From positions 720,001 through 752,000 of the forward strand of contig NC_014205.1 in assembly GCF_000092465.1 (NCBI RefSeq): 32,000 nucleotides of DNA. Reading direction: 5' to 3'. Numbering within the stretch: position 1 is the first letter of the stretch; the number at the start of each line of letters is the position of its first letter. The DNA is from Staphylothermus hellenicus DSM 12710 (GTDB taxonomy: Archaea > Thermoproteota > Thermoprotei_A > Sulfolobales > Desulfurococcaceae). The notes beneath the pieces were generated by a model, which saw nothing but the letters and a program-made list of their open reading frames with translations, had not been told where the DNA came from and made no database searches. Made by a program: the position numbers and the translations under genes. Shown piece after piece: positions 3,622-15,489 of the stretch.

Positions 3622-3957
3622 TTGGAATTGCCAGATACTATAATGTGGTTGATCAAAGAATATAAGCCAACCAAGAGCTTACTACATAATCTTGTCTATT
3701 TAATGGATGGCGTTGATGAAAACTTTATGCATTGGAGCATATCAATAACTGGTGTTTACTCTGAGAAGATTGACTATATTGTTGAAAACCTTATTCGTAA
3801 AGGATTAGTAATTGAATGTAGTAATGGAAGACTTACAATAGATAAGTGTCCTAGCGAGGATATTGATGGCCACAAAATAGTTTCACAAGCCATATTTAAA
3901 TACTTGTTATCCAAGACTATGAAGGCTCAAATAATAAGGGGAGAGCTAAGCAACTAG
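3622..3957 (+). CDS. Hypothetical small protein
   Basis: 111-aa ORF (TTG start; alternative ATG at 3643). I recognise no motif. It fills the gap between flanking genes. Confidence 0.4.
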   Translation: MELPDTIMWLIKEYKPTKSLLHNLVYLMDGVDENFMHWSISITGVYSEKIDYIVENLIRKGLVIECSNGRLTIDKCPSEDIDGHKIVSQAIFKYLLSKTMKAQIIRGELSN

Positions 3958-6550: not shown

Positions 6551-6686
6551 CTAATCAATGCTTACATTACAGATACAATTTATAATTATTACATAATTAT
6601 TAAATATATAATTGACACCTGCATGAACTAGCTACATGATATTATTACCGATTTTTTTATTTTTTCATTATTAAATAAATATATAG

Positions 6687-7493
6687 GTGATAGTGGTGGC
6701 TGGTAAATCTTTGTATTCTATCTCTGTGTTACTGTTCATTATAGTGTTCTCTATTATCTCCGCTATTCCCAGTACGGTGGAATCCTATGACGTTGGTGCT
6801 GCGATGACTTTTGATGACGATACTAATGATACATGGTTTAATGCTGTAAAGGATTTTGTGGATATTATTACTAGTTCTAGGGCATACTGGTATGAATGGT
6901 TTCTAAGGGACTATCCTAATGTAGGTCCATATATGTGGACTGAGGAGGAGTATGGCGGAGAGGATAACGACTATGCTGACTTCACAGAGCTATCACTAGT
7001 ATGGGGGCATGGCTGTGTGGTGGTATTTCCTGACGGAGAATCTGTTACCGCCATAGGGTTTGGAGGGGGAAAGGGATGCGCTATGCCTTATCATATAAGG
7101 CTTGGATATAAAAGCCCCGATTATTACGGATATGCTATATGGACTTTCATAATACAATGTAGTATATTGAATGATGACGATGTAGGCGAATGGCTACAGG
7201 TAATGACAGGTATTCACATGGTACTAGGTTTCGCAAACACTGTCGTTATATCTAATGTGGATCCAAGCATTCTAGCCTACAGGTTAACGGGTACTGGAGG
7301 TTATCAGAAGGAAACAGTTCAAGATGCATTCTTCCATACATTTGTGAGATATGACAATGTCCATAAAAACAATATTGGAAGAATCATTGCTGAGAATGCT
7401 GATGCTGCTGATCATGACACCATAGATTCCTTTGAATATCATATCCCTGTCGACAACGTAAAGCTTATAATTACATGCTATATACCGGGGTGA
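6687..7493 (+). CDS. Secreted hypothetical protein with a possible His/Cys (caspase-fold-like) dyad
   Basis: 268 aa, GTG start, N-terminal signal/anchor (LYSISVLLFIIVFSIISAIP). Motifs LSLVWGHGCVVVF (His108) and WTFIIQCSILND (Cys158). Confidence 0.6.
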   Translation: MIVVAGKSLYSISVLLFIIVFSIISAIPSTVESYDVGAAMTFDDDTNDTWFNAVKDFVDIITSSRAYWYEWFLRDYPNVGPYMWTEEEYGGEDNDYADFTELSLVWGHGCVVVFPDGESVTAIGFGGGKGCAMPYHIRLGYKSPDYYGYAIWTFIIQCSILNDDDVGEWLQVMTGIHMVLGFANTVVISNVDPSILAYRLTGTGGYQKETVQDAFFHTFVRYDNVHKNNIGRIIAENADAADHDTIDSFEYHIPVDNVKLIITCYIPG

Positions 7494-7500
7494 TAGAACT

Positions 7501-8601
7501 ATGAAAAGAAACATATTATTAGTCTCATCAGTAGTCATTGCAGTGATCATAGCAATATTAATAGTTATGTTCAATACACAATATAATTACATGCCGAATA
7601 AATATAATACCATATCTAATACCATATCCCGGGAGGAGAGTGTAGAGCCTTCAAATATAACGCTCATAGATTATAGGCTTATAAACATACTTGGAACCTA
7701 TAAGTATTATGTGTTGAGCAATGGCTCCACGATCGCTGTCCCGCCCCCTCCCCATCCAGATCCATTCCCGTTTAAGATAGAGCTTAGAAATGTTAATAGA
7801 TCCGTGATCCATAAAAAGCTTCCAGTATACAAGTTAGAGTATCCTGAGGAACCCGATGAAGTCATGAAAGTTGCTCGTACACTGCTTAGTTTATTTGGTG
7901 TAGAAGTTTCATCATTAGAATTTAATAATGTGACAAAAGCTTTTCTATACAGCAACCCCGAACAGGGCATACGTTTATTTGAATATTATATCGGCACCGA
8001 TAAAGGCTTCTTCAGAATAATATTTGAGAATCCAAGAATAGTTAATTATACATTATTCATGGAGAGGGTTAGGCTGATTGTAGACGATAAGATTACCTAT
8101 AAGTCATCAATTATTGAAAAACCATATACTTGGACAGAAACAATTGTCCCCGCAGCCTCGGCAAAACCTGCTGAATCCCAAGCTATAGCCTATGCTATAA
8201 TTTATAAAGGCTTCCTAAAAGACATGCCGGTACCCTATGCTATAACCTCAGTATTATTCAAATGCGATGGGGAAGGCAAGGTTTTAGAGATAGAGGGTAC
8301 ATTGCCTAAAAAGATCATAGAGATTGGCTCATACCCCGTAATACCCATTGAGCAGATATGCAAGTTATTAACCGAGAGAGTTTCAGGTAAGATCAAAGCT
8401 GGGGACTGGTACATATCTTATGTAGGCTTCACAAAACTCACCATAACCAACATAACACTAGAATACTATGAAACCATGACAACGGAGAAATACTTGGTTC
8501 CAATATACCGTTTCACCGGAGAATGGACACTAAACTATGATGAAATCAACGACCATGGATCACTAAATGGATTCATCATAGCCGTAGCTTTATCAAAGTA
8601 A
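7501..8601 (+). CDS. Membrane-anchored hypothetical protein
   Basis: 366 aa, starting 7 nt after the previous stop. It has an N-terminal TM helix (ILLVSSVVIAVIIAILIV) and a proline-rich stretch PPPPHPDPFPF. No recognised catalytic motif. Confidence 0.6.
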   Translation: MKRNILLVSSVVIAVIIAILIVMFNTQYNYMPNKYNTISNTISREESVEPSNITLIDYRLINILGTYKYYVLSNGSTIAVPPPPHPDPFPFKIELRNVNRSVIHKKLPVYKLEYPEEPDEVMKVARTLLSLFGVEVSSLEFNNVTKAFLYSNPEQGIRLFEYYIGTDKGFFRIIFENPRIVNYTLFMERVRLIVDDKITYKSSIIEKPYTWTETIVPAASAKPAESQAIAYAIIYKGFLKDMPVPYAITSVLFKCDGEGKVLEIEGTLPKKIIEIGSYPVIPIEQICKLLTERVSGKIKAGDWYISYVGFTKLTITNITLEYYETMTTEKYLVPIYRFTGEWTLNYDEINDHGSLNGFIIAVALSK

Positions 8602-8693
8602 TTTACCCCTCATCTACCAAGTATTTTTTTCTTACACACTTTTTACGGGATAGATTTTATATCCTCTACAAATGATATTATAAGAGTTACTTG

Positions 8694-12358: not shown

Positions 12359-13480
12359 TTGAGCGTTAGCCGAGACTTTATTGATAAGGCTAAAAAAGCA
12401 TATAGGGATGAACTAGAATCTGCAATAATATATTCAATGATCGCTGGAAGATTAAAAGGGAAGCCAATATCCGAGAAACTATTAAGAATAGCACATATAG
12501 AATCAGAACACGCTGGTTTCTGGGCACAGATTCTAAGGAAATACGGTGTGGATCCGGAAACGGTTAAGCCTAGTAAAACCAAAATCTTCATGTATAAATT
12601 GTTGTTTCCAATAATAGGTTTTGGATTAACACTGAAACTATTAGAATCCGGCGAATCTGAAGCAATTAAAATGTATTCTGATCTCCTAGAGTCCCCAAAT
12701 TTAAATGAGAAAGAAAAGGAATGGTTAAAGAAGATCATTGCTGATGAATTAATGCATGAAGAAAGCTTCATAGAAGAAGAATCAAAGATCAAGGAGTTCC
12801 TAGACCATGTGAGGGATGCCGTTCTAGGAATGAATGATGGATTAGTTGAAATATTATCGGTTTCAGCAGGTTTAGCTGGAGCATATGGTGACCCATTAAA
12901 TGTCGCATTAGGCGGACTAATAGTTGGAATAGCTGGTTCTCTATCCATGGGTATAGGAGCATATATTAGTGTGAAGGCTCAGAGAGAAGTTAGGATGAGT
13001 GTACTTCATAGAGTAATTGGTGCCGTTAAAAGTATACCGGAAAAACTAGTTGAAACCCTGTCTAAGATCATATCCTCGAGAGGGTACTCTAAGGATACGG
13101 TAGAGAAAATATTGAATGATGCATCTAGAAACAAGGAATTGCTTAAAAAACTGGTTGTCGAGGAAAAATATGGTATAAAAGAGGAAATGATAGAAAACCC
13201 TGCAAAATCAGGATTAATAACAGGTTTATTTTATATTGTTGGAGCAATAATACCTTTAATACCATACTTCCTAAGATTACCAATAATAATATCACTACCC
13301 CTATCTCTATTATTCGCGGGATTAATGCTCAGCATAGTGGGATTCCTAATAGCATTATCAGCCGGCTTAAACATAAAGAAGAAAATGATAGAACTACTAA
13401 TTGGAGGTCTAGGAGCAGCAGGATTAACCTACCTAATAGGTCTAATAGCATCAACACTGTTAGGCATAAACGTTGGCTGA
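12359..13480 (+). CDS. Ferritin-like (rubrerythrin-type) domain fused to a VIT1/CCC1 iron transporter domain
   Basis: 373 aa, TTG start 4 nt after the fprA stop. N-terminal ExxH pairs (ESEH, ELMH). VIT1 motif AVLGMNDGLVEILSVSAGLAG. C-terminal TM helices. Confidence 0.85.
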   Translation: MSVSRDFIDKAKKAYRDELESAIIYSMIAGRLKGKPISEKLLRIAHIESEHAGFWAQILRKYGVDPETVKPSKTKIFMYKLLFPIIGFGLTLKLLESGESEAIKMYSDLLESPNLNEKEKEWLKKIIADELMHEESFIEEESKIKEFLDHVRDAVLGMNDGLVEILSVSAGLAGAYGDPLNVALGGLIVGIAGSLSMGIGAYISVKAQREVRMSVLHRVIGAVKSIPEKLVETLSKIISSRGYSKDTVEKILNDASRNKELLKKLVVEEKYGIKEEMIENPAKSGLITGLFYIVGAIIPLIPYFLRLPIIISLPLSLLFAGLMLSIVGFLIALSAGLNIKKKMIELLIGGLGAAGLTYLIGLIASTLLGINVG

Positions 13481-13990
13481 ATTCTCCAATTATCTAAGCC
13501 GATAAAAACAATTTTATTCAATAATATTTTTTATAATTTATATTAAGGTAAAATCTATAAATCTATATAGTTCTTCGAACATCGGCCAGACCCTATTATT
13601 AGTTTAGTATTTTAATACAATTAATCTTGAAAGATTAGTCCAACGACTAAATTCTATTATTAATATTTTGAAAACAAATATTGGTAGCCTTGGTACATCA
13701 ATGGATTTATTTTAGTGTATATCATGGTATAGAGTAAGCCAAGTGAGACCTTTTTATTATATGCATTTGTACAGCTTTTTCCGATCACTAAAGCTCTAGT
13801 TGATAATATAAGTATTAGGCTAATATTTTATCTTTAACTATTAACATTTTCATCTAAAACTCTTAGTCATACTTCATTGCTGAATTAAATCTTTTCCATT
13901 TTCCTAAACCGTTAGCTTTCAACAATTTCGCCAAATACATGGCTCGATACGCTTACTTTATTAAAAATACACGTCTAATAAGTTCGAGCA

Positions 13991-13998
13991 TTTAAAAA
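13991..13998 (+). promoter_or_regulatory. Candidate archaeal TATA box for the GC-rich RNA
   Basis: TTTAAAAA preceded by purine-rich CGAGCA (BRE-like). Its centre lies about 26 nt upstream of G14021, where the GC-rich segment begins. Confidence 0.4.
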
Positions 13999-14011
13999 CA
14001 AACCAGTAACA

Positions 14012-14020
14012 ATAAAATAA
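14012..14020. repeat. Left copy of a 9-bp direct repeat ATAAAATAA flanking the GC-rich element
   Basis: An exact 9-mer is repeated at 14321-14329. The two copies bracket exactly 300 bp (14021-14320). Confidence 0.6.
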
Positions 14021-14310
14021 GCGAAGGGTTGGGGCACTCCGTAGGGGATCCAACCCCAAAATTCACGGTGTCCCAACTCCCCAGCAAGCCAATAGGGCCC
14101 CAAGGGAAGCCCCAGCAACGGCTCGGGGGCTTAGCGTAGGACTGTGCAAGCCTAGATTCACCCCGGGGGTCTAGGTTTGCATGGTTCTGCGTTGAGCTCC
14201 CTCCCCGGGGGAGCCGTTGTTGGGGTTTCTTGAGGGGCCTTTTGGCTTGAGCGGGGGTTGTAATCGGTGCTTTACGGGGTTGGGCCTCTTATGGAGTGTC
14301 CCGGCCCTGT
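14021..14310 (+). ncRNA. Unclassified GC-rich rod-like structured RNA (about 285 nt)
   Basis: 179/290 G+C (62%) inside AT-rich flanks. 14026-14160 pairs with 14170-14307 as one unbranched hairpin, including 32 consecutive pairs 14125-14156/14170-14201. I count about 20 G-U pairs versus 1 A-C, which favours the + strand. There is an upstream TATA-like box. I found no SRP, RNase P, C/D or H/ACA motifs. The ends are approximate. Confidence 0.7.
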
Positions 14311-14320
14311 CTCTTCTACT

Positions 14321-14329
14321 ATAAAATAA
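14321..14329. repeat. Right copy of the 9-bp direct repeat ATAAAATAA
   Basis: Exact match to 14012-14020. Confidence 0.6.
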
Positions 14330-14829
14330 TTACCTATGTGTAATATAATGCTGTTCTAAGAATGCTTGAGGGTCTTGTTTTATCCCATCAAGTAGAACTC
14401 CCCATATCTACGACCACGCGTATATGTTTTAGCTCTCCATTTAGGAATTGCTGTATAGAACACTTTTTCATGGTTATTTAGTTTTTGAGGTAATTAATTG
14501 TATGTCTAGTTGGTTGATGGTTCTTAATAGGTGTTCCGAGCTTGTATATATTAATAGGATATTACTTAGTGAGGAATCCTTAGCAAATAAAAATGAATTG
14601 TGTTAAGAGCATTTATTTAGAGGCTTATTATGGATAATTAGCTTCTCTATTACTTGTCGGTATTTATTTTATATTATATGGTAAGTAGTAAAGAATCTTC
14701 CAGGGGATATGAACTACAAAAACGTGACAGGATATTTTTATGAAAAAACATTATTGAGTGTTAATCATGCTTAGTAGCATTAAAACCTTGGGCTGAAAAT
14801 GCTGCATTTTATGTCATTTTATGTTTTAT

Positions 14830-15489
14830 TTATATTGGCCATTTCTCTATATTGTAGGCCATGTCCCAGAACATGTATTCGTATCTGCTGCTTAGTATGA
14901 ATATTCTTTTCAATTTATTGTAGTCTATGTGTTTCGCATATTTATCTACTAAATTTATTAGTTTGGTTGTTAATTCAATGTATTCTTTTGATCTATACGT
15001 GTTTATCCAGTCTAGATATACTGGGTTTTTGTTTTTCATTATTAAATCCTTGTTTACTCTGGGTATTTCCATATAGGTCCAGAAGCATGGAAGAGTTGAA
15101 ACCAAGCACTCTATAGGTGTTCCGAGACTACAGGTTGATAATACATGATTAACATAAGCGATATTCGTGGGTGCTGGCTCAGTATTCAATACTTCTTCTA
15201 TGGTTAATCCTATTCTATCCAGTAATCGCAGATAATTATCCATTTCAATCGTTGCATCACCATATGCTAGCATTAATGCCTCTCTTAACAATTCATAATC
15301 ATAAGCTTTAGATGCCAATAATGAAAACGCCTTAGTCATACCGATAAGGAAATTATAGTCTTGAATAACATAGTATCTAAACTTTTCCATTGGCAGAGAT
15401 CCTTTGAAAAGCTCGACTACGAAGGGATGCTTAAATATCTTATCCCATATACTATTAGCTTCTTCTCTAAGCCTCTGTGTAACCGGCAA
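14830..15489 (-). CDS. tenA: Thiaminase II / aminopyrimidine aminohydrolase (TenA family)
   Basis: 219 aa. WDKIFKHPFVVELFKGSLPMEKFRYYVIQDYNFL matches the TenA/PqqC-like N-terminal signature. Lies in a thiamine gene context. Confidence 0.88.
   Translation of the reverse strand: MPVTQRLREEANSIWDKIFKHPFVVELFKGSLPMEKFRYYVIQDYNFLIGMTKAFSLLASKAYDYELLREALMLAYGDATIEMDNYLRLLDRIGLTIEEVLNTEPAPTNIAYVNHVLSTCSLGTPIECLVSTLPCFWTYMEIPRVNKDLIMKNKNPVYLDWINTYRSKEYIELTTKLINLVDKYAKHIDYNKLKRIFILSSRYEYMFWDMAYNIEKWPI

Follow-up and report, generated by a model that had tools for sequence, protein, structure and literature searches.

A predicted rod-shaped hairpin RNA in an intergenic spacer of Staphylothermus hellenicus whose pairing is conserved in Staphylothermus marinus

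The chromosome of the hyperthermophilic crenarchaeon Staphylothermus hellenicus DSM 12710 carries a G+C-rich inverted repeat, here called the rod, that is predicted to be transcribed and to fold into a single long hairpin. We analyzed it within a 32,000-nucleotide (nt) stretch of contig NC_014205.1 (positions 720,001 to 752,000; referred to as the window), and coordinates are those of the window unless another contig is named. The rod lies in a 1,350-bp gene-free, AT-rich spacer between two convergent genes: a rubrerythrin-VIT1 fusion gene on the left (12359-13480, + strand) and tenA, encoding TenA, on the right (14830-15489, - strand). A thiamine gene cluster follows on the far side of tenA. 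The predicted transcript body occupies 14021-14313 on the + strand, with a paired core at 14026-14307, and its assignment draws on the fold, on an orthologue in S. marinus, and on structure-preserving substitutions between the two species. G and C make up 178 of the 290 nt at 14021-14310 (61.4%), compared with 31.3% across 1 kb on either side and 36% over the entire window, and this is the sole place in the window with any 100-nt stretch above 0.55 G+C. A preliminary description of this DNA had reported such an island (179/290, or 62%) within strongly AT-rich flanks; the count needed a slight correction, and the island and its flanks are as described there. The rod is evidently not coding, since the only open reading frames (ORFs) within it are small and do not stay open in S. 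marinus, where 1-nt indels interrupt them; moreover, six-frame translation of the spacers of both species revealed no common ORF, hidden gene, or pseudogene. S. hellenicus grows optimally at 85°C (PMC3236042).

Positions 14015-14320 were folded with RNAfold, with 100 dinucleotide shuffles as the background. The + strand formed a single unbranched rod with a minimum free energy (MFE) of -211.7 kcal/mol, against a shuffle mean of -128 kcal/mol (z = -15.4), and none of the 100 shuffles folded as well. The - strand of the same stretch reached -143.1 kcal/mol (z = -7.0). At 85°C the rod was still the MFE fold (-60.9 kcal/mol), and the MFE, centroid, and consensus folds were all three unbranched. 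The S. hellenicus rod contains 127 pairs (66 G-C, 37 A-U, and 24 G-U) and one isolated (1x1) A·C opposition. Its 5' arm (14026-14159, + strand), recovered by both RNAfold and the consensus fold, is joined to the 3' arm (14167-14307, + strand) by an apical 7-nt loop, ACCCCGG (14160-14166, + strand). The apical 56 bp form an almost perfect duplex, in which 14125-14156 and 14170-14201 make 32 unbroken pairs, 8 of them G-U, and the helix extends for 3 more pairs to the loop. Below it, the duplex between 14085-14124 and 14211-14249 is interrupted by a 1-nt bulge (U14093) and a 2x2 loop (14102-03/14232-33). These claims of the preliminary description, together with a basal helix at 14032-14057/14276-14302 and the proposal that the whole forms one unbranched rod, all held when the sequence was folded by program; refolding at high temperature, as the description had advised, again returned the rod.

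Interruptions of the rod are otherwise few, amounting to the 2x2 and a 3x3 internal loop, two 1-nt bulges, a 9-nt bulge, and one looser region. The 3x3 internal loop (cag facing agc; 14082-14084/14250-14252, + strand) is partly closed in S. marinus. The loosely paired region on the 5' arm (14058-14073, facing 14261-14274, + strand) is the only sizeable interruption of the duplex; the RNAalifold consensus leaves 8 + 5 nt unpaired there. The 9-nt bulge UCCCCGGGG on the 3' arm (14202-14210, + strand) exposes an 8-nt GC palindrome that is the same in both species; alternatively, it can form the loop of a local hairpin at 14196-14214, in which UCCCCGG is closed by GCUCCC and GGGAGC. Calculated energies were -18.3 kcal/mol at 37°C and -7.3 kcal/mol at 85°C for a self-duplex of this bulge, and -12.3 and -4.9 kcal/mol, respectively, for pairing between the apical loop and the bulge. 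No periodicity of G runs or C runs was found along the helix, and the fold layout, including the base of the rod, contained no bulge-helix-bulge or kink-turn motif.

The preliminary description had considered this element an orphan, a label that has to be dropped. In S. marinus F1 (contig L083), the rubrerythrin-VIT1 gene and tenA stand in the same order, and the 1,394-bp spacer that separates them contains a rod as well. Three further S. marinus-like assemblies also carry the rod and differ from F1 only in an adjacent AG-to-GA change at its base, which turns one G-U pair into A-U and swaps the bulged base. Genome-wide, the DNA of the two species is 87-89% identical. Between their rods we counted 36 transitions, 3 transversions, and 5 indel columns, so the sequence has not stayed frozen. 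The folding energies in this comparison were -212.6 kcal/mol for S. marinus and -210.1 kcal/mol for S. hellenicus. We then set these values against random mutants, 500 in each direction, that carried as many transitions and as many transversions as separate the two rods, placed at random positions. Mutants of the S. hellenicus rod averaged -147.7 kcal/mol (standard deviation, 12.4; best, -189.2) and those of the S. marinus rod averaged -147.9 kcal/mol; in each direction, 0 of 500 was as stable as the real partner.

Classifying the pairs by structure showed how this stability is kept. Ninety-eight pairs are unchanged, 18 have one side changed with pairing kept through G-U, 4 are changed on both sides (three from G-C to A-U and one from C-G to U-A), and 7 are broken; 5 of the broken pairs lie at the extreme base of the rod, in a part where a 2-nt indel is misplaced by MAFFT. 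RNAalifold, given the three distinct sequences, returned 123 consensus pairs with 4 both-side changes and ~22 one-side changes that keep pairing. In S. marinus, one inserted base per arm also pairs up part of the 3x3 loop (columns 68/240 and 69/239). Compared with 500 nt of adjoining downstream spacer, the rod had a transition-to-transversion count of 32:3 versus 61:40 and 3 gap columns versus 116. The rod has diverged at about the genome-average rate, almost only by changes that keep pairing in the + strand RNA, and these changes include G-U intermediates, double compensations, and a paired insertion; the surrounding spacer decays through transversions and indels. The rod thus displays what is generally looked for in a noncoding RNA (ncRNA), a conserved secondary structure with structure-preserving substitutions in an orthologue, and the pattern points to purifying selection for + strand pairing over the whole length of the rod. 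Orthologous substitutions that break the helices had been named in the preliminary description as the finding that would speak against such an RNA; those in S. marinus preserve them.

The strand on which pairing is kept is also evident from the wobble pairs. The counts of G-U pairs to A·C oppositions are 24:1 in S. hellenicus and 17:0 in S. marinus, where a plain DNA palindrome should accumulate G·T and A·C oppositions equally, and such a palindrome is disfavored for this reason. In both species the - strand folds 50-70 kcal/mol more weakly than the + strand (-159.5 versus -212.6 kcal/mol in S. marinus). Strand-biased deamination was considered as a source of the G-U excess and rejected. Substitutions in the rod comprise 18 A<->G and 14 C<->T changes, each opposite a base that keeps the pair (purine changes opposite U, pyrimidine changes opposite G); A<->G and C<->T changes being similarly frequent, cytosine deamination on one strand cannot explain the excess. 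The proposal of the preliminary description, that the asymmetry reflects selection on a + strand RNA, is strengthened by its recurrence in both species and by the structure-preserving substitutions; its estimate of about 20 G-U pairs was low, and its single A-C opposition was right. Two blocks of the rod are free of substitutions: the apical 40 nt (14143-14182), which contain the loop and are identical in both species, and 33 nt of the 3' arm (14266-14298). The 5'-arm partner of the latter has changed five times, which hints at a sequence-level constraint on one arm, although one that is not significant at these numbers.

A candidate archaeal promoter core precedes the rod (13986-13998, + strand). 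It consists of a TTTAAAAA box at 13991-13998, already pointed out in the preliminary description, and the 5 nt on its 5' side; the box is conserved (TTTAAAAAA in S. marinus) and well spaced, and we predict that the promoter is active. The center of the box lies ~26 nt 5' of G14021, which is the usual archaeal spacing from TATA box to start, and the exact octamer occurs 4 times over both strands of the 32 kb (64 kb read). Transcription would start near G14021, directed by this box and an AT-rich proximal element, ACAATAAAATAA (14009-14020, + strand), that is identical in S. marinus, and would end at pyrimidine/T-rich sequence 3' of the rod. The first T run there, TTGTTTT (14375-14381, + strand; TTTTTGTTTT in S. 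marinus), is a possible termination site, as oligo-T acts in archaeal termination. A 12-nt direct repeat lies on both sides of the rod, with ACAATAAAATAA as its first copy. The second copy, ACTATAAAATAA (14318-14329, + strand), is identical to it at 11/12 positions, a match with a probability of ~0.02 within 55-nt flanks in the local AT-rich spacer; in S. marinus, the flanking 12-mers are 9/12 identical to each other. ACAATAAAATAA could therefore be read either as a proximal promoter element or as half of a target-site duplication.

The boundaries of conservation around the rod are sharp on the promoter side. The end of the VIT1 gene is conserved between the species as far as 13520; from there to ~13965 the two spacers align in a random-like manner (32-46% identity, about 38%), and good alignment starts at ~13986, five bases ahead of the TTTAAAAA box. 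The 430-470 nt in between (13520-13986; L083 11162-11589) have no homology between the species or to any other compared sequence and have therefore undergone replacement at least once after the two species separated. Downstream of the rod, at ~14519, S. marinus has 63 extra bases (alignment columns 1065-1127). This insert is divisible by three in length but is apparently noncoding, because it carries a stop codon in the sole shared frame.

We then asked how widely the rod occurs. Three relatives have only 11-60 nt in place of the 1.35-kb spacer: one (L084), whose VIT1 and TenA are 81% and 76% identical, has a VIT1-tenA gap of 60 nt without the rod (3799-3860), and two others, with TenA proteins 74% (L116) and 71% (L117) identical, have 26 nt (6660-6686) and 11 nt (2559-2570), respectively, after tenA. 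The rod-bearing spacer is therefore specific to the S. marinus/S. hellenicus lineage, whether by gain there or by loss elsewhere. A TenA-anchored synteny search of GTDB genomes yielded 80 loci (best, 72% identical), none of which has a VIT1-tenA neighborhood with a spacer; neither blastn nor nhmmer found a homologue of the rod in these loci, and no G+C island across them folds as a comparable rod. Exact and degenerate pattern scans for the rod in viral contigs, a transition-tolerant pattern scan around the apical loop in metagenomes, and blastn with the rod against phage and plasmid collections returned no match. Twenty-four Joint Genome Institute (JGI) metagenome matches to two CCCCGGGGG motifs were attributed to chance, a judgment made on composition and fold alone: their contigs have 55-76% G+C, with one at 46% (L100), and their folds are branched, with 3-9 hairpin loops. 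A covariance model of the apical 165 nt, run against 731 kb of related archaeal contigs, recovered only the rod itself. The rod occurred once in the 32-kb window and once in the 21 kb of S. marinus examined, and the 731 kb of related contigs contained no further copy. In addition, six independent short-read assemblies run unbroken through the rod. These Logan contigs, which we take to be 31-mer graph assemblies, would presumably break at a multi-copy repeat, on which reading the rod is apparently single-copy.

Comparison with known RNA families gave no assignment. No model in Rfam 15 reached its gathering score at any position of the window, the outcome of a check that the preliminary description had proposed. 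At E <= 10, the only matches over the rod in a search of 13900-14450 were microRNA (miRNA)-precursor models scoring 16-20 bits; the cut-offs of these models are 82-100 bits, and the matches therefore reflect generic hairpin shape. Archaeal signal recognition particle (SRP) RNA (RF01857) did not match even at E <= 10, and the rod has no helix 6/8 branch and no GNAR/GRRA tetraloops. In Desulfurococcales, the small domain of SRP RNA is eroded and the large domain is kept (PMC2905702). Archaeal RNase P RNA had no Rfam match, and the rod lacks any multi-helix junction. Guide RNAs of the box C/D and H/ACA types likewise had no Rfam match, and inspection found neither an RUGAUGA box nor a 3-nt bulge with tandem G·A. 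With no branch, no helices 6/8, no kink-turn, and no bulge-helix-bulge, SRP RNA, RNase P RNA, and guide RNAs are excluded, in agreement with the preliminary description. ARAGORN found no tRNA in the window, and tRNA, split tRNA, and transfer-messenger RNA (tmRNA) were rejected on this ground and on the absence of a bulge-helix-bulge in the rod; the split tRNA-Lys halves of Staphylothermus lie at ~1.09 Mb, among Shell_1116-1133 (PMC3218864). A bacterial 6S-like promoter mimic was rejected as well, there being no Rfam match and the largest interruptions being a 9-nt one-sided bulge and small internal loops. Rfam presumably includes models of 6S RNA and of small self-cleaving ribozymes, and the rod matched none in Rfam. 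Literature searches turned up no described archaeal counterpart to the rod, and here too the view of the preliminary description stands.

We conclude that the rod is probably a stand-alone gene, restricted to the genus, for a very stable, rod-shaped ncRNA transcribed from the + strand. Three other explanations were weighed against this one. The rod might instead be a palindromic, nonautonomous element resembling a miniature inverted-repeat transposable element (MITE) that inserted once into an AT-rich spacer, with an RNA structure that is incidental or serves the element only. It resembles archaeal and bacterial MITEs and palindrome-associated elements in size, in its palindromic form, in a flanking duplication that may be present, and in lying within a variable spacer: the 12-nt direct repeats abut both ends in the manner of a target-site duplication, the G+C content is foreign to the genome, the spacer adjoining the rod was replaced between species, and the whole 1.3-kb spacer is missing from the relative with the 81% identical VIT1. 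A ~260-nt putative MITE is, moreover, reported in 14 copies in S. marinus and shows a relationship to the regions that precede IS607-family transposase genes (Anderson et al. 2009, PMC2678158). That published repeat has flanking inverted repeats, whereas the rod is a GC-rich palindrome over its full length, a comparison made by description only. The rod also differs from MITEs in being apparently single-copy, with no second copy in the DNA searched and with six assemblies that run through it (an argument that depends on the assumed 31-mer assembly), and in its strand-specific wobble, since a DNA inverted repeat predicts equal counts of G·T and A·C mismatches. It sits at an orthologous position in two species whose DNA differs by ~12% and thus did not hop there recently; the changes between them preserve structure in the + strand RNA only. 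As for the repeats, they agree at only 9/12 positions in S. marinus, and the left one coincides with the promoter-proximal element. We regard a mobile element as quite improbable; among the options of the preliminary description (a new ncRNA, a processing substrate, or a mobile element), it is the one that has become less likely. The rod may well have arrived by insertion, with the present pattern reflecting maintenance as an RNA.

The rod could also be a cis-acting structure within a longer transcript, either a 3' structure that protects or terminates read-through from VIT1 or the 5' structure of an ncRNA running toward tenA. Its position downstream of VIT1 on the same strand and between convergent genes would suit this arrangement, as would the lack of a strong terminator directly 3' of it and the 500 nt beyond that can still be aligned between species. 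Those 500 nt, however, evolve at a nearly unconstrained rate (20% substitutions, a transition-to-transversion ratio of 1.5:1, the 116 gap columns, and no conserved ORF), and on the other side the stretch of 470-540 nt from VIT1 to the rod is not homologous between the species, homology resuming exactly at the well-placed TATA box. VIT1 of S. hellenicus has a T6 run after its stop codon, and close relatives have no spacer here at all. We therefore consider a cis-acting role unlikely. A structure acting in DNA, such as a palindrome or cruciform serving as a protein-binding, recombination, or replication-related site, would account for the presence of so long an inverted repeat within 1.35 kb of AT-rich DNA devoid of genes. 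Its arms would have to contain 24 and 17 G·T mismatches, all tolerated only in + strand RNA; the weaker fold of the - strand and substitutions that follow RNA pairing rules are equally at odds with it, and no initiator gene or repeated origin-box-like motif was seen nearby. This last explanation appears highly improbable.

Several points nonetheless weigh against a stand-alone RNA gene. The transcript, its ends, and its strand are predictions made from sequence, and any protein partner or target is hypothetical. The rod is represented in two species only and by three distinct sequences; with two species, the covariation amounts to one divergence event per site, and the 4 double changes only slightly exceed the roughly 2 expected by chance. 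Only 52% of the pairs in its stems are G-C and 19% are G-U, whereas stable RNAs of hyperthermophiles have more G-C-rich stems. No clear oligo-T terminator lies directly 3' of the rod. Just 3' of it, at 14320-14327, the - strand carries a TATA-like box, TTTTATAG (TTTATAAT in S. marinus), that could drive antisense transcription into the rod. Finally, with three nearer relatives lacking it, the rod is not essential for the order.

If the rod is such a gene, the property under selection is most likely the continuous duplex itself, because pairing is kept over the full length and the only invariant unpaired parts are the ACCCCGG loop and the UCCCCGGGG bulge. Our best guess is that the RNA would serve as a double-stranded RNA (dsRNA) ligand for a protein, whether as scaffold, decoy, or substrate. 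We hypothesize that the two exposed CCCCGG motifs act as specific contact points or as sites of RNA-RNA kissing; dimerization or protein contact is plausible given the favorable energies of the bulge self-duplex and of loop-bulge pairing. Our confidence in the gene-level statement is high, and our confidence in a duplex-ligand function is low.

G+C islands in AT-rich hyperthermophile genomes are a known route to RNA genes, and the RNAs known to have been found in this way are compact and branched. What would be new here is one unbranched archaeal duplex of ~127 bp under selection over its full length, of which we found no described example. A real transcript would raise the questions of what reads or cuts long dsRNA in a crenarchaeon without known RNA interference (RNAi), why a genus-specific RNA has been retained since the species split, and whether RNAs assemble with one another at 85-90°C through the two invariant, exposed GC palindromes. 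The rod is also a clean case in which the comparison of two genomes tells selection at the RNA level from a DNA palindrome.

Three further observations were made at other loci. Within the window, a 2.1-kb segment of S. hellenicus (6553-8675) contains two ORFs (6687-7493 and 7501-8601, the latter of 366 amino acids [aa] and without a Pfam match); S. marinus has 86 nt (L083 6217-6303) in its place, and the difference is a species-specific insertion or deletion. In a 53% G+C contig of a Desulfurococcales metagenome-assembled genome (MAG), a 502-nt island with 79% G+C (L020 6480-6981) has strong folds on both strands, with 8 hairpins, and is probably another structured RNA. A Desulfurococcaceae MAG carries a TnpB-family gene (L012 7134-8324; 396-409 aa) with hundreds of 75-85% identical relatives in hot-spring metagenomes, which indicates a putative insertion sequence (IS) family that is very active in hot springs; among the 120 matches listed, most of them without an organism label, none was labeled Staphylothermus.

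Among known systems, the closest in genomic setting are the HgcC-HgcG RNAs of Methanocaldococcus and Pyrococcus, which Klein, Misulovin and Eddy reportedly described in 2002 as G+C islands in AT-rich hyperthermophile genomes. Like them, the rod is an intergenic island (61% G+C in 36% G+C DNA) with its own TATA box and no ORF; unlike them, it matches no Rfam family (the Hgc families included), is a single 127-bp duplex without branches where theirs are compact folds of several helices, and is confined to a single crenarchaeal genus. SRP (7S) RNA is likewise ~300 nt long and G+C rich, with 5' and 3' ends paired in a long rod (helix 5), but the rod described here has no helices 6/8, tetraloops, or Alu-domain loops. 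With eukaryotic hairpin RNA (hpRNA) and primary miRNA (pri-miRNA) genes the rod shares an inverted repeat, a long near-perfect duplex, and an excess of G-U on the transcribed strand, which in our case is the predicted one. Its matches to miRNA models, in contrast, are weak and generic, and neither Dicer nor RNAi machinery is known from Crenarchaeota.

Bacterial 6S RNA, viroids (Pospiviroidae), and Obelisks resemble the rod in being rod-like, G+C rich, and ~180-400 nt long (~1 kb for Obelisks), and their function depends on overall duplex shape. The rod differs from 6S RNA in having no large central bubble and from viroids and Obelisks in being encoded in DNA at a fixed chromosomal locus, vertically inherited, and, judging by its sequence, open-ended. 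By analogy, a long dsRNA rod of Staphylothermus might act through duplex shape as 6S and viral decoy RNAs or viroid-like rods do, a speculative reading to which we give a small chance. Such a rod might act by sequestering a duplex-binding protein or by being cut by one, or it might self-assemble through its two exposed CCCCGG(GG) palindromes; if so, it would represent the first long-dsRNA biology in a crenarchaeon growing at ~85-90°C.

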